The notes under the pieces were generated by a model, which was not told where the DNA came from, searched no databases, and saw only the letters and a list, made by a program, of their open reading frames with translations. From positions 64,001 through 128,000 of the IMG/VR virus record IMGVR_UViG_3300047564_003843: a DNA stretch of 64,000 bases. The stretch is one strand, 5' to 3'. Origin of the DNA: a virus. This document shows, one piece after another, positions 16,359 through 45,567 of this stretch (the stretch's first letter is position 1; every line of letters starts with the position of its first letter). Made by a program: the position numbers and the translations under genes.

Positions 16359-19300
16359 ATGAGTTTTTCTCCTGACGTAAACACGAGAAGTGTTGTTGGT
16401 CAGTACTTAAAGAGTTCTGGCTCCGCAGCGTCTGGTACCGTAACTTTTACAGCATCAAGTCGTATCGAAGACGCTAATGATGCAACTATCGTAGCTAGTC
16501 CAATTTTAGTAACTTTAGACAATACAGGTTCATTTTCAGTCGAGCTTCCTTGTACAGATGACTTAGATTTAAGCCCTCGTGGTTGGTATTGGACCGCAAA
16601 AGTAAGAGTCTCTGGGCGTCGTTCTACTGAATTTCGTTTTTATTTGCCTGAAGGTGACGGCAGTGATATTGATGTTACAAAATTAGACACTGTTGACCGT
16701 ATTACTACTTCTCCAGCTGGTATCGATGTTCTTCGCGGACAAGTCGGTCCAGCTGGTGCTCAAGGTCCAACAGGCCCAGCGGGACCCGCTGGTGGACCAA
16801 CAGGAAGTACTGGTTCAACAGGACCAACAGGTGCAACAGGTGCAACAGGACCAGTGGGTCCAACAGGTGCAACAGGTGCTACTGGTGCAGCATCAACAGT
16901 TGCAGGTCCAGTCGGACCAACAGGTGCAACAGGTGCTACAGGTGCACAAGGAGAAGCAAGTAACGTAACAGGTCCTACAGGTGCAACAGGTCCTGCAGGT
17001 CAGTTCGGTGGCGTAACGCTGGACATGACGTTCAGCACTAACACTACTGATTCCGATCCAGGCTCTGGTCGAATTAAATTTAATAACACAGATTTATCTC
17101 TTGCTTCATACATGTTTATTGATGATGAACAAGATGGTGCTGTTGATATTCAAAATCTTTTGCGCACAATTATGGCTTCCACAAGCCAACTTAAAGGACA
17201 CTTCCGTGTAGCAAGAAAATCAGATTCAAATTATTCAGCAATGTTCTCTATCGACAGTTATGTTGAAGATAGCGGATATTTTAAAGTTGAAGTTAGTTAT
17301 CTAAGTGGTTTAGCAACTGCATTTGATGCCAGTGATGATGTCATTGTTACCTTTGCTCGCACTGGTGACGTCGGTGATCGAGGTGCTACTGGTGCTACTG
17401 GTGCAACAGGTGCAACAGGTGCAACAGGTCCACAAGGTTCTGCATCGACTGTAGCGGGACCTACAGGTCCTCAAGGTGAAGCGGGTCCAACTGGTCCAAC
17501 TGGTGCGACAGGTTCTGTTGGTGCAACAGGTGCACAAGGTGAGGCAGGTCCTACAGGTTCTGTTGGTGCTACTGGTGCAACTGGTGCAACAGGTGCACAG
17601 GGTGAGGCAGGTCCTACAGGTGCGACAGGTGTAGCAGGTCCTACAGGTGCGACAGGTGATACTGGTCCAACAGGTGCGACAGGTGCATCTATTACAGGTC
17701 CGCAAGGTGCTACTGGTGATACTGGACCAACTGGTTCTCAGGGTGCAACAGGTGCTACTGGTGCTACAGGCGCAGGAGCTACAGGACCAACAGGTGCTAC
17801 AGGTGCACAAGGTCCTCAGGGAACATTTGGTGGAGTCACACTTGACTACACATTCAACACTACAACAACAGATAGCGACCCAGGCACAGGAACAGTTCGC
17901 TTCAATACTGCAGATATCACCAATGCAACATTTATGTTCATTGATGATGAAGCTGACGGTGCTACAGATATTCAGGGATATTTACGAACCATTGATGACA
18001 GCACAAGCCAAATCAAGGGTCATTTCCGTATCTCACTCAAGTCAGATGCAAATAACTTTGCTCTCTTTGCAATTACAGGAACAAGCACAGAAGCTTCTGG
18101 GTATTTCAAAGTCCCAGTTGCACATGTCAGCGGTCTTGCTACTACATATTCAAATAGCGCTGATGTACTTCTAACTTTTGCTCGTACAGGAGATATCGGT
18201 GACACTGGTGCCACTGGTGCTACAGGTGCTACGGGCGCGACAGGAGCAACAGGTGCACAAGGAATTCAAGGCGAAACAGGCGCGGTTGGACCTACAGGTG
18301 CTGCAGGAAGCACAGGAGCAGCGGGAGCAACTGGACCAACTGGAGCTCAAGGAAATGTGGGCGAGACTGGACCTACTGGTGCCACTGGAGTTGCAGGACC
18401 TACAGGAGCCGCTGGAGCAGTAGGTGCCACTGGCGCTGCTGGTGCTACAGGCGCAACTGGTGCAACTGGAGATACAGGCCCTACTGGTGCTGCTGGTGCT
18501 GCAGGAGATACAGGTCCTACAGGAGCCGTTGGTGCAACAGGTGCTACTGGTGCTCAAGGCCCAGTTGGAAACTTTGGTGGAGCATCATTTGACTACACCT
18601 TTACCGCAAACGCCTCTGAGGCTGACCCAGGTACAGGAAAGCTTCGCTTTAATAATCTTGATTTACAACTTGCAACCAATATGTTCATCGATGATGAATC
18701 AGATGGTGCAATTGATGTTCAGCAATTCCTTCGCACGATTGATGACTCAACAAGTCCAATCAAGGGACACATGCGAATCAGCAACAAGACTGATTCTGCA
18801 GACTTTGCTCTTTTTGCAATTACAGGTGCAATCACCGAGAACTCTGGATACTTCACAGTTCCAGTTTCATATGTAAGTGGTTTAGCAACAAGTTTTAGTA
18901 ACAACGAAGATGTAATTGTTACCTTTGCTCGTACAGGAGATGTCGGTCCTCAAGGTATTCAAGGTCCTACAGGACCAACGGGAGCAACTGGTCCATCGGT
19001 AACAGGTGCAACTGGTCCAACTGGTGCAGATTCAGTCGTCCCAGGTCCAACAGGCTCTACAGGACCAACAGGTGCAACGGGTCCAACTGGTGCTGATAGC
19101 ACAGTTGTCGGTCCAACTGGTCCACAAGGTGAGCAAGGTATTCAAGGTGTAACAGGCCCTACGGGTGTTCAAGGTGAAGTTGGTCCAACTGGTCCTCAAG
19201 GTGAGGTTGGTCCTACAGGTCCTCAAGGTGAGGTTGGTCCTACAGGTCCAACAGGTGCAGACAGCACAGTTGCAGGTCCTACAGGTCCTCAAGGTGAGGT

Positions 19301-44068: not shown

Positions 44069-45567
44069 AGTTTGTAATCTGTGGCGGTGGAACAGCTGGC
44101 TGGGTCACTGCCTACACTATCCATGCTTCTAATCCTAGGACCCACGAAGTAGTTGTAATTGAGTCCCAGAAAATTGGAATTATTGGTGCTGGAGAAGCTA
44201 CAAGTGGTTTTTTGTATGACTTACTAGATGGAACAACTCTTTTTAATAATAATGATTATTTAAACCCGAATAAGCCTCCTTTTGATTTTGCAGAGTTTGT
44301 TTCAAAAGTAGATGCGGTTCCAAAGTACGCACTTAAACATATAAACTGGGCAAAAGAAAAAGGACATTACTGGGCACCTATTAACGGTTCAGAGACTTCC
44401 AAAAGGTCTCCAGATCATTTGTTTAACTATGTAATTTCAGAGTTTGGTCCAGAAAAAGCATATTTATCTTCTACCCTTGGTCAAGCTTATGATTTAAATA
44501 AAATGCCTAAAAGCGGCGGATATGGATTTCAATTTGATGCCCATAAGGTTGCTAAATATCTTCGAGAGCATATAACAACAACTACTAATACAAATCATAT
44601 TGACGCTGTAATAGACAATGTATCTGTTAATAGCGCTGGTCTTGTTGAAAGCGTAACTCTAGACAACGGAGAAGTTGTTGAGGGTGACTTTTTTATTGAC
44701 GCTACAGGTTTTGCTCGAGTTTTAGCAAATAAGTTAGATATTGGTTGGATTGACTATAAAGATCAACTTCTAGTTGATAAAGCTATGCCATTTATTGTTC
44801 CTTACAAAGATGAGGAAAAAGTTCAACCAGTTACGGTTGCAGAAGCTTTGTCATCTGGCTGGATGTGGAGAACTCCAACAGGTGGTCGCAGAGGTTGCGG
44901 GTATGTTTACAGTAGCTCATTTATGTCTGAAGATGAGGCCCAAGCCGAGGCAGAGAAAGTAATGGGCCACCCTATTGAACCAATTAAACACATTAAATAT
45001 GAATCTGGCCGTGTTGACCAGTTTTGGAAAGGTAATGTTCTTGTTGTTGGTCTTGCAAGTTCATTTATTGAACCTTTGGAAGCAACAAGTATTCATGCAA
45101 CTATTACTCAGATATTTATATTTTGCCAAGAGTATTTGTCATATACAAAAGAAAAAACTTTAAATCAAGCATCTATTGAAAAATATAATGCTAAAACATC
45201 AAAAATGTATGAGTATTACAAAGACTTCACCGTGTTTCATTACCAAGGAGGACGTGAAGATTCTGAATTTTGGAAAACAATTAAGTTCGACAAAATTACT
45301 TCTCCAGCTGTAGAAAACTATATTGAGCGCTCAAAGAGTAGGATTCCAAGCGTTCTACATTTTATGGATTTCTGGGGGGTAGATGCTCTTTGGAAGTGGA
45401 CCTTGGCAGGTTTAGGCTACATAAATAGAGAGCAAGCTATGAATGAACTAATCCAATTTCAACAGTTTGAGTACGCACAGGGTCATTATCAAGCTTTTAG
45501 AAATGACATGAGAAAAATGTTAGCTGACAGACCTGCTTTTGAAATGAATCCAAAAGATATTATTTAG
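44065..45567 (+). CDS. Flavin-dependent (tryptophan) halogenase family protein
   Basis: GGGTAG, GEAT, catalytic-position K in PKYALKHINW, FIDATGF, WMWRTP, FIEPLEATSI. Confidence 0.88.
   Translation: MKFVICGGGTAGWVTAYTIHASNPRTHEVVVIESQKIGIIGAGEATSGFLYDLLDGTTLFNNNDYLNPNKPPFDFAEFVSKVDAVPKYALKHINWAKEKGHYWAPINGSETSKRSPDHLFNYVISEFGPEKAYLSSTLGQAYDLNKMPKSGGYGFQFDAHKVAKYLREHITTTTNTNHIDAVIDNVSVNSAGLVESVTLDNGEVVEGDFFIDATGFARVLANKLDIGWIDYKDQLLVDKAMPFIVPYKDEEKVQPVTVAEALSSGWMWRTPTGGRRGCGYVYSSSFMSEDEAQAEAEKVMGHPIEPIKHIKYESGRVDQFWKGNVLVVGLASSFIEPLEATSIHATITQIFIFCQEYLSYTKEKTLNQASIEKYNAKTSKMYEYYKDFTVFHYQGGREDSEFWKTIKFDKITSPAVENYIERSKSRIPSVLHFMDFWGVDALWKWTLAGLGYINREQAMNELIQFQQFEYAQGHYQAFRNDMRKMLADRPAFEMNPKDII

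Follow-up and report, generated by a model that had tools for sequence, protein, structure and literature searches.

We analyzed a 64,000-nucleotide stretch of viral DNA (hereafter the window), which covers bases 64001-128000 of an IMG/VR virus record of 160.7 kb (G000). Within the window, 15 co-oriented genes fill positions 16359-45567 of the + strand, with intergenic gaps of at most 227 nt (Table 1). This 29-kb block is bounded by an exonuclease gene and by a convergent WhiB gene. It encodes seven collagen-like proteins (ColA to ColG), several structural or adhesin-like proteins, and an S8 protease, and its last three genes encode a methyltransferase, a glycosyltransferase with TPR repeats (GT2-TPR; hereafter the GT), and a flavin-dependent halogenase. 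A preliminary description of the window had listed these genes as co-oriented. That is correct, and the family matches are clear. We propose that the block is probably a late structural operon for modular, glycosylated host-adhesion fibers, most likely on the tail, and that the GT is of the same type as SgtA from Clostridioides difficile.

Table 1. Genes and domains of the fiber block and of its surroundings, with positions in the window (aa, amino acids; ORF, open reading frame; SAM, S-adenosylmethionine).
Feature	Position	Strand	Match or basis
Small serine recombinase / invertase-type gene	4638-5321
1,281-aa ORF	5410-9255		no PHROG match
Exonuclease gene	15034-16251
ColA, 1981-aa beads-on-a-string collagen-like fiber protein	16359-22304	+	PF01391 3.1e-74, 13 stretches
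ColB, 233-aa short collagen-like protein, N-terminal 'AIDFP' module	22318-23019	+	PF01391 23.5 bits, below cut-off
ColC, 630-aa collagen-like fiber	23031-24923	+	PF01391 7e-30
314-aa repeat protein, propeller-like look	24904-25848	+	weak matches only: DUF6242, phrog_8700
ColD, 216-aa collagen-like protein, 'AIDFP' N-terminus	26075-26725	+	PF01391 7.9e-13
895-aa structural protein, Ig-like domain and C-terminal glycine-rich domain	26819-29506	+	He_PIG 1.2e-9
ALK/LTK-like glycine-rich domain of the 895-aa protein	28800-29500
2037-aa giant structural/adhesin protein, ALK/LTK-like glycine-rich domain	29520-35633	+	phrog_5838 1.2e-138
ALK/LTK-like glycine-rich domain of the 2037-aa protein	29980-30910
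ColE, 793-aa fiber: N-terminal jelly roll, collagen segments, cupredoxin-like C-terminal domain	35643-38024	+	PF01391 1.9e-18
Jelly-roll N-domain of ColE	35643-35990
Cupredoxin-like domain of ColE	37560-38021
S8 subtilase, 528 aa, no signal peptide	38037-39623	+	Peptidase_S8 PF00082 2.1e-32; phrog_9158 9.9e-68
ColF, 528-aa ColE paralog, different C-terminal domain	39677-41263	+	PF01391 5.6e-10
Jelly-roll N-domain of ColF	39677-40024
ColG, 153-aa mini-fiber, short collagen stalk and tip domain	41277-41738	+	PF01391 22 bits, below cut-off
209-aa carbohydrate-binding module protein	41740-42369	+	predicted fold
Methyltransf_24 class I SAM methyltransferase, 191 aa	42407-42982	+	PF13578 3.6e-13
GT2-TPR glycosyltransferase, 358 aa, proposed SgtA-type collagen O-glycosyltransferase	42992-44068	+	Glycos_transf_2 and TPR families
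Flavin-dependent halogenase, 500 aa	44065-45567	+	Trp_halogenase PF04820 3.8e-82, start overlaps GT stop
WhiB gene	45560-46105	-	convergent with the fiber block
Fiber-like protein	56580-58151	-	
Minor tail proteins (Tal-like and Dit-like)	58141-60156 and 60172-62499	-
Tape measure	62501 onward	-

We identified collagen-like proteins by using Pfam's collagen family (PF01391, gathering cut-off of 27.2 bits), and we counted G-X-Y triplets in runs of at least five. Seven genes match PF01391, five of them above the cut-off. The two short proteins that score below it, ColB and ColG, have 7 and 10 triplets in runs, respectively. The seven genes together encode 486 triplets, with threonine at Y in 49% and proline or alanine at X in 71%. 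The commonest triplets are GPT (122) and GAT (82), so the Pfam matches and the triplet counts agree with the earlier claim of seven collagen-like genes dominated by these two. More than half of the triplets (250, with 54% threonine at Y) are in ColA, whose 750 collagen residues would form roughly 200 nm of helix by our estimate. About 1,460 residues of the block's proteins fall in collagen runs. Every substantial G-X-Y run of the whole 160.7-kb record lies inside the block. The view that this is a dedicated fiber locus is supported.

Very probably, the GT attaches O-linked sugars to collagen proteins and is of the same type as the enzyme that acts on BclA3 in C. difficile (SgtA), judging from its sequence relatives and with SgtA compared by description. 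It matches Glycos_transf_2 at residues 7-121 (1.1e-6) and TPR_19, TPR_2, and TPR_14 at residues 243-345. D83, D85, and E86, which form an acidic DxD-type motif, are invariant in its relatives from phages, Firmicutes, and the jumbo phage PaBG. (In NCBIfam, neither the GT nor the methyltransferase received a specific name.) The collagen gene closest to the GT belongs to the same operon and stops 1.25 kb upstream of it. Three pieces of evidence lead us to this view of the GT.

First, its bacterial relatives are usually encoded next to collagen-like genes. A family-alignment search, with one genome per prokaryotic species, found over 494 relatives. We analyzed the best 79, which align across their full length at 41-49% identity and come mostly from Clostridia, Oscillospiraceae, Lachnospiraceae, and Bacilli. 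We defined a partner collagen ORF as one with at least 8 consecutive triplets, and we considered genes to be adjacent if they were within 1.5 kb. Among these best 79 relatives, 68 have an adjacent collagen-like ORF, usually 50-130 bp upstream and co-oriented. There are 3.31 collagen ORFs per 10 kb within 1.5 kb of the GT versus 0.057 per 10 kb elsewhere in these loci, which is a 58-fold difference. The partner collagens contain 3,744 triplets with 57% threonine at Y, and their top triplets (GPT, 1,156; GAT, 814) are the same as in the phage. Ten of the partners were confirmed with Pfam, and one (L147, from a metagenome-assembled genome (MAG) of Anaerovoracaceae) also has a weak match to BclA_C. 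We drew a second sample with a bare DNA motif that includes AGR arginine codons, so that it was independent of similarity rank. Among the matches listed, 22 of 45 loci have a collagen gene within 1.5 kb (13-fold enrichment).

Several of the Firmicutes genomes (G001, G093, G224, and Desulforamulus aeronauticus, G003 C45 18468-21607) have two tandem full-length copies of GT2-TPR. A third copy, more distant (31% identity), is adjacent in G003 and in G002.

Second, the GT and the collagen genes occur together in related phages. We gathered 60 IMG/VR loci around the GT. The methyltransferase, the GT, and WhiB (on the minus strand) are almost always present there in that order, and collagen genes are found upstream wherever the contig extends far enough; the halogenase and the S8 protease are each in about half. 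Another set was built around the 2037-aa protein, whose C-terminus served as the query. We kept the best 80 of 557 relatives, and 58 of those loci have enough downstream sequence. Here, a collagen ORF on the + strand is present in 56 loci, the GT in 52, the methyltransferase in 47, the S8 protease in 26, and the halogenase in 22. We also counted the fewest changes that each feature requires on a tree of 37 non-identical relatives of the 2037-aa anchor. Of these relatives, 35 have both the GT and downstream collagen and 2 have neither, with no mismatch, and each of the two features requires two changes. The methyltransferase is present in 31 (five changes), the S8 protease in 18 (six changes), and the halogenase in 17 (ten changes). 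The expectation that the enzymes would accompany the collagen genes across related phages thus held for the GT (35/35 where collagen is present and 2/2 where it is absent) and mostly for the methyltransferase, and it was weak for the halogenase and the S8 protease. Another three loci with partial matches (L226, L228, and L229) also lack both the GT and collagen.

Some related phages are arranged differently. An outlier contig (L065), along with L072, L207, and L239, has the GT amid ColE-type collagen genes and has neither WhiB nor the methyltransferase. In L189, L228, and L229, which lack collagen genes and the GT, the two giant proteins are directly followed by a protein of about 1,250 aa and by portal-, protease-, and capsid-like ORFs (as judged by order and size only); the genome around this shared adhesin-like core is organized differently.

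Third, the nearest relatives of the GT with solved structures all glycosylate the side chains of proteins or peptides. Setting aside generic TPR proteins, comparing a profile of the GT family to PDB sequences gave GmaR (3.4e-11) and the SunS-type enzymes (7msp/7msn and 7msk at around 1e-8, and SunS at 2.3e-8). With the adjacency in bacteria and the co-variation in phages, this suggests that the GT is a collagen O-glycosyltransferase, and so the idea that it tailors the collagens of this locus has held up.

Four observations count against this view of the GT. The co-variation in the phage clade represents only 2-3 independent events, and with only two independent contrasts, it is not significant (sign test, p = 0.5) even though its direction is perfect. 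About half of the GT's relatives in low-GC bacteria do not have a collagen gene within 1.5 kb; the link to collagen in bacteria is strong, yet it is not universal. There are distant relatives (27-35% identity) in jumbo phages, and the one in PaBG has no annotated collagen nearby; some members of the wider family may thus act on something else. And we base the kinship with SgtA on its published length, architecture, and gene context, not on an alignment.

Could the GT act on the host instead? It might modify a collagen-like protein on the surface of the host and thereby remodel the cell surface, for instance to block superinfection. A MAG from the Nanopelagicales (L105 6001-10568, on a 242-kb contig) has a chromosomal island that adjoins ftsW-, murG-, murC-, and ftsQ-like genes (as identified from their translations). 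The island encodes a 680-aa GT2-TPR protein that is fused to an extra domain (49% identity to the phage GT), a putatively membrane-anchored collagen-like protein, a second GT2-TPR, and a further GT2. The lineage is a possible host, the island may be what corresponds to the phage cassette in a cell, and it would suit a GT with a host target. But the phage has 486 suitable triplets of its own, encoded directly upstream of the GT in one operon, and the presence of the GT follows that of the phage's collagen genes. Also, the Nanopelagicales MAG is GC-rich, whereas the phage's GC content is 42%. We consider a host target to be very improbable.

The methyltransferase gene is directly upstream of the GT gene in nearly all of the related phages. 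We also examined its five closest relatives from MAGs (45-49% identity), which are labelled as Nanopelagicales, Actinomycetota, Nocardioidaceae, Bacteroidia, and Rhodoluna, and which show three different gene arrangements. In the stretches that we fetched, four of the five have a homolog of GT2-TPR and three have a large collagen gene. More distant relatives of the methyltransferase (up to 39% identity, mostly from Alphaproteobacteria) showed no link to the GT or to collagen. These comparisons support a functional tie between the methyltransferase and the GT and collagen within this lineage, and it usually accompanies the GT. It probably modifies either the sugar or the fiber protein. The methylated sugars on BclA are a precedent.

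The halogenase aligns to positions 1-448 of the 458 in PF04820. It has GGGTAG at its N-terminus and WMWRTP as a variant of the WxWxIP motif, and it is similar to the halogenases Thal, RebH, and PrnA (about 1e-52 to 1e-49) and to VirX1 (9.6e-37) in PDB. In some relatives, a halogenase of this lineage sits after the GT; in the phage DSL-LC01 (described below), it is before the GT. In eight relatives (L042, L044-L047, L053, L200, and L242), a halogenase of a second lineage lies between the methyltransferase and the GT. The use of one junction by two lineages is a hint of a functional tie, but this pattern is equally expected of an insertion hot spot at the end of an operon. Because the halogenase has been gained and lost so often, the fibers do not need it. 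We view it as an accessory.

The record itself encodes another tryptophan-type halogenase, 56 kb away and outside the window (G000 51551-53119; L006 11551-13116). It is 29% identical to the first and adjoins genes for an M23 peptidase and two GNAT acetyltransferases.

Might the three terminal enzymes form a single cassette for tailoring virion proteins? Its reactions would be O-glycosylation of the collagen fibers, methylation of the sugars or side chains, and, where the halogenase is carried, halogenation of tryptophan or other aromatic residues in the fiber modules. We regard this as a long shot. If it were true, then these fibers would be the first halogenated structural protein from a virus, and the puzzling phage halogenases would have a natural substrate. 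The recurring halogenase at the GT junction is a tractable place to seek the natural substrate of viral halogenases. We also considered a cassette for tailoring a small molecule (halogenase, methyltransferase, and GT, as for rebeccamycin), and we rejected it as the main explanation because the GT is of the protein-glycosylating, collagen-linked type.

Another possibility is that the methyltransferase, the GT, and the halogenase are unrelated accessory genes that accumulated at the end of the operon, with DNA, the host envelope, or a small molecule as their targets. The end of an operon, beside a convergent gene, is a typical spot for insertions, and the halogenase's ten or so changes of state among 37 relatives, with two lineages at one site, look like such turnover. 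The PHROG category for the GT's family is 'moron, auxiliary metabolic gene', and the authors of the DSL-LC01 paper listed the halogenase among four auxiliary metabolic genes. (That paper mentions collagen 0 times.) The jumbo-phage relatives of the GT, which are not beside annotated collagen genes, could be explained in this way as well. But phage synteny cannot account for the GT family's tie to GPT/GAT collagens in unrelated bacterial genomes. The presence or absence of the GT tracks collagen perfectly in the phage clade, and its nearest solved relatives glycosylate proteins or peptides. Furthermore, the closest relatives of the methyltransferase are near GT2-TPR (4/5) and collagen (3/5) in varied arrangements. 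Overall, we think it is quite unlikely that these are unrelated accessory genes, and we favor a GT that acts on the collagen-like fibers.

The S8 protease has the motifs of the catalytic triad (IDSG, HGTHVA, and GTSMAAP) in order in its translation. Where it is present, it is always amid collagen genes. The family phrog_9158, which the protease matches, bears ColE's cupredoxin-like tip domain at its C-terminus, and this suggests that some S8 relatives are themselves fiber-like virion proteins. Processing of the fibers by the protease, as was proposed earlier, is possible but unsupported. Its presence in 18 of 37 relatives, with six changes, indicates that the protease is an accessory, which the building of the fibers does not require.

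The collagen stretches are joined to a variety of globular modules. The N-terminal 130 aa of ColA are similar to phrog_14726 ('tail fiber protein', 2.6e-14), and its C-terminal part is similar to tail-fiber and baseplate PHROGs. ColB's C-terminal domain resembles phrog_13144 and phrog_13571 ('virion structural protein'). ColD has a counterpart of 216-228 aa in most of the related phages. The C-terminal tips of ColC and ColG are paralogous: the last 106 aa of ColC match phrog_8780 ('minor tail protein'), phrog_21510, and phrog_18179, and ColG's tip matches phrog_21510 (8.4e-17) and phrog_8780 (1.3e-13). (Across both tips, the matches to 'minor tail protein' PHROGs range from 1e-13 to 6e-9.) The C-terminal domain of ColE is similar to phrog_677 ('baseplate wedge tail fiber protein connector', 8.6e-23), and searching its sequence against PDB gave only low-complexity matches to collagen. 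ColF's N-domain aligns with the jelly roll of ColE, and its C-terminal 229 aa have no match in PHROG. Overall, the N-termini of the collagens are phage-type modules ('AIDFP', jelly roll, or phrog_14726), and a Pfam scan found no BclA_C domain (PF18573) in any of the seven at E <= 0.01.

Two of these modules recur elsewhere. The jelly-roll N-domain of ColE and ColF (about 110 aa) also occurs in related phages as a stand-alone protein of 104-111 aa or at the head of non-collagen proteins (L072 3505-3837, L239 16067-16402, and L189 1431-1745). By these sequence matches, it is a widespread module in related phages. The cupredoxin-like domain of ColE forms the C-terminus of phrog_677 as well as of phrog_9158, and it keeps a Cys-x2-His-x2-Met ligand pattern in distant relatives (L072 351-632, L207 3675-4640, and L239 10985-12478). 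The upstream His is seen in L072, which is the one relative that is readable there. A copper site on the tip of a phage fiber would be unusual.

Four of the block's structural proteins do not contain collagen. The 314-aa protein has a below-cut-off match to the F510_1955 glycosylhydrolase family in NCBIfam (1.3e-7), and its counterpart in DSL-LC01 was annotated as a 'photosynthesis system II assembly factor'. The 895-aa protein is similar to phrog_22713 (4e-21) and to phrog_5838 ('virion structural protein', 7.6e-15). The 2037-aa protein is also similar to phrog_2885 ('baseplate wedge subunit', 6.1e-44) and to tail-fiber PHROGs, and it matches the ectodomains of LTK and ALK in PDB (7nx0 and 7nwz, 6.8e-10 and 8.2e-9). 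(Both of these large proteins contain ALK/LTK-like glycine-rich domains, and phrog_22713 is common to both.) In its C-terminal half, the 2037-aa protein shares homology with p173 from phage S-PM2, a 'virion structural protein', with 32-40% identity over about half of it.

The 209-aa protein, whose gene begins 1 nt past the stop codon of ColG, was modeled by AlphaFold with a confident core (predicted local distance difference test, pLDDT, of about 90) and a tail that is conserved but disordered. With Foldseek, the model matches the carbohydrate-binding module (CBM) family CBM22 (4.9e-10, target-normalized TM of 0.78 over 165 columns), as well as CBM16, CBM4, and domains from phage tailspikes. 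Its gene is the most diverged among close relatives, and the distal fibers are likewise among the most diverged. The model has a fold of the CBM22/16/4 type. This protein is a probable adhesin at the fiber tip, and the disordered tail could dock it there.

We then considered where on the virion the fibers might sit. The source, going by its genes, is an uncultured freshwater actinobacterial phage with siphovirus-type tail genes; the WhiB gene, TerL, and the siphovirus-type tail genes are what suggest an actinophage. Among its relatives, the only one with a name is DSL-LC01 (OQ999401), an Actinomycetia phage assembled from a metagenome of Dishui Lake, and megablast against named phages found a single match of 270 nt, to DSL-LC01. 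That phage shares the gene order of the block: collagens, the propeller-like protein, a giant protein annotated as 'ALK', further collagens, the halogenase, the glycosyltransferase, and then WhiB on the opposite strand. The two ends of the record in which the window lies align to each other at 80-85% nucleotide identity over about 20 kb (G000 1-24 kb versus 136-160 kb). These overlapping ends, which are outside the window, hold head genes, including a giant protein of 3,133/3,137 aa. Judging from the alignment, the record is probably either a chimeric assembly of two strains or a diverged terminal duplication, and because of the overlap, the true genome is probably about 136 kb.

All of the canonical tail genes in the window are on the minus strand, including a fiber-like protein, and so they are indeed elsewhere and on the opposite strand from the collagen block, as the preliminary description reported. 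From 36000 to 47500, our scan for promoters and terminators found no more sites than in shuffled sequences. Upstream of the block, the gene for an invertase-type recombinase is followed by a large ORF. We searched for inverted repeats that such a recombinase might use and found only quasi-palindromic collagen codons. No fiber segment is bracketed by inverted repeats, so there is no sign of invertase-driven fiber switching.

Our evidence on placement comes mostly from a PHROG scan of the non-collagen domains alone. (PHROG annotations are mostly predictions.) Every named match is to a tail fiber, minor tail, or baseplate family (phrog_14726, 5073, 677, 819, 8780, 16053, and 2885), or else to a 'virion structural protein', and none is to a head decoration protein. 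On this basis, we lean towards tail or baseplate side fibers.

The preliminary description had instead put the fibers on the capsid or neck, as a glycosylated coat like the BclA nap of spores, which would serve for shielding or long-range capture and would not be part of the tail. Several observations fit such a coat and weigh against fibers on the tail. The fiber operon is apart from the genes for the tape measure, Dit, and fiber, and on the other strand. Collagen-like accessory proteins of capsids are known, such as gp12 of SPP1 (PMC6316719). The 209-aa protein has a match, below the cut-off, to the 'phage head spike fiber domain' of NCBIfam (7.1e-7). In relatives that lack collagen, the giant proteins are just upstream of portal-, protease-, and capsid-like ORFs, although these were recognized by order and size only. 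Also, the N-domain of ColE, which was modeled with a pLDDT of 88, gave generic jelly rolls with VIA-align (Z of 8-9), among which a trimeric capsid cement protein ranks first (7dou, Z = 9.3). Foldseek found nothing for this domain at E <= 0.001, and the weaker matches include a pentameric phage capsid protein and BxpB/ExsFA. But the structural matches are at the level of noise, and they also include the tail tip gpJ of lambda (Z = 8.9) and baseplates. In the Pfam scan, the collagens showed no BclA_C or BclA-like anchor, the homologous block of S-PM2 is treated as adhesins, and the 209-aa protein has a CBM fold. Collagen-like fibers of baseplates, such as FibU of 80alpha, are also known. We therefore consider a capsid or neck coat to be unlikely, and what remains of our estimate goes to undecided or to both sites.

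From the gene content, the domain identities, and the link across taxa between the GT family and GPT/GAT collagen genes, we infer what the GT acts on, which sugar it adds, what the methyltransferase does, and where the fibers sit on the virion, as follows. The operon would be expressed late in infection. The seven trimeric collagen-like stalks would carry interchangeable globular domains (the jelly-roll N-domain, the cupredoxin-like tip, and the minor-tail-type tip), and they would be accompanied by the two giant proteins with glycine-rich domains, the propeller-like protein, and the separately encoded CBM, which probably docks on a fiber tip. Inside the infected cell, before or during assembly, the TPR arm of the GT would hold unfolded or folding collagen chains while the threonines (or serines) of the repeats are O-glycosylated from a host nucleotide sugar. 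The methyltransferase would then probably cap the sugar or the protein. The trimers would form long flexible fibers with sugar-binding and other modules at their tips, and these would most likely be attached at the tail tip or baseplate as extra side fibers. They could bind surface glycans of the host reversibly, and so raise the rate of encounter or speed adsorption. (The side tail fibers of lambda and T5 raise their encounter rates.) The collagen stalks are thin, and the glycan coat would stabilize, solubilize, or shield them. Of the other enzymes, the S8 protease and the halogenase would be optional add-ons.

Parts of this proposal are already known separately: collagen-like phage fibers, the glycosylation of BclA3 by SgtA, and virion glycosylation in actinophages. 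In the literature that we searched, we found neither a phage operon with many GPT/GAT collagens and an SgtA-type enzyme nor a report of O-glycosylation of collagen-like tail fibers from phages. If the fibers are glycosylated, then collagen O-glycosylation of the SgtA/BclA type extends from spores to virus particles, and actinophages would have a second way of glycosylating their virions, by another mechanism. Our proposal would also assign a concrete function to this GT2-TPR family, which is common among uncultured phages and occurs in hundreds of Bacillota genomes, and it would explain why this family travels with collagen-like genes. For phages that must find small, sparse actinobacteria in freshwater, long fibers that are glycan-coated and sugar-binding could matter.

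How does the fiber block compare to known systems? The BclA nap of Bacillus anthracis is an extended surface filament with a GXT-rich collagen-like stalk, O-linked sugars that are partly methylated, and a globular distal domain. The phage's GXT-rich collagen-like stalks with globular domains resemble it by analogy, not by membership: they would be on a virion and not on a spore, we did not find BclA_C, and ColE's N-domain resembles BxpB, ExsFA, and the C-terminal domain of BclA only as a generic jelly roll. GmaR, the O-GlcNAc transferase for flagellin in Listeria, is also built from GT2 and TPR (its solved chain has 204 aa), and the SunS-type enzymes are peptide glycosyltransferases. Their sequence similarity to the phage GT is low, and they act on flagellin or glycocin peptides instead of collagen repeats. 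VirX1 (PDB 6QGM) and the bacterial tryptophan halogenases are in the same Pfam family as the phage halogenase, but here, two paralogous lineages recur beside a protein glycosyltransferase.

The closest counterpart of the GT may be SgtA itself, which has 358 aa, with a GT-A domain at residues 1-260 and TPR at 262-358 (PMC7157674). SgtA adds beta-O-GlcNAc to threonine (and also serine) in the GPT repeats of BclA3, a collagen-like glycoprotein of the exosporium, and sgtA adjoins bclA3 (PMC7157674). By this published description, the phage GT is very similar: it is equally long (358 aa), its GT2 domain spans residues 7-121 and its TPR region about 243-345, and both genes are beside GPT-rich collagen genes. 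The differences are that the phage enzyme is viral and is accompanied by seven collagen genes in which we found no BclA_C or exosporium-anchor domain. Also, sgtA is described as lying upstream of bclA3, whereas most of the relatives that we found have collagen upstream of the GT. In mycobacteriophages, according to the citation of Freeman et al. 2023 in PMC12619734, glycosyltransferases modify the phages' own structural proteins, at the C-termini of capsid and tail-tube subunits. We propose something similar here, in that an actinophage would encode a glycosyltransferase for its own structural proteins. Compared to the cases described in that source, the proposed target is instead the threonine of collagen repeats in fibers, and the enzyme belongs to the SgtA type of GT2-TPR proteins.

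In S-PM2, the block p173-p175 was described as putative adhesins, and a mutation in neighboring S-PM2d175 was fixed in all three chemostat replicates (PMC9910659); the block is under selection in co-culture. Besides the homology of p173 to the 2037-aa protein, the S-PM2 block is also away from the main tail module. S-PM2 is a T4-like cyanobacterial myovirus, and its block has no annotated collagen or GT2-TPR genes. Finally, trimeric collagen-like segments are known from the baseplate or tail fibers of Staphylococcus aureus 80alpha (FibU) and of Escherichia coli prophages and from the capsid accessory protein gp12 of SPP1 (PMC6316719). Their collagen segments are short, one or two per phage, and no glycosyltransferase is dedicated to them, whereas the block that we describe has seven collagen-like genes, about 1,460 triple-helix residues, and linked tailoring genes.

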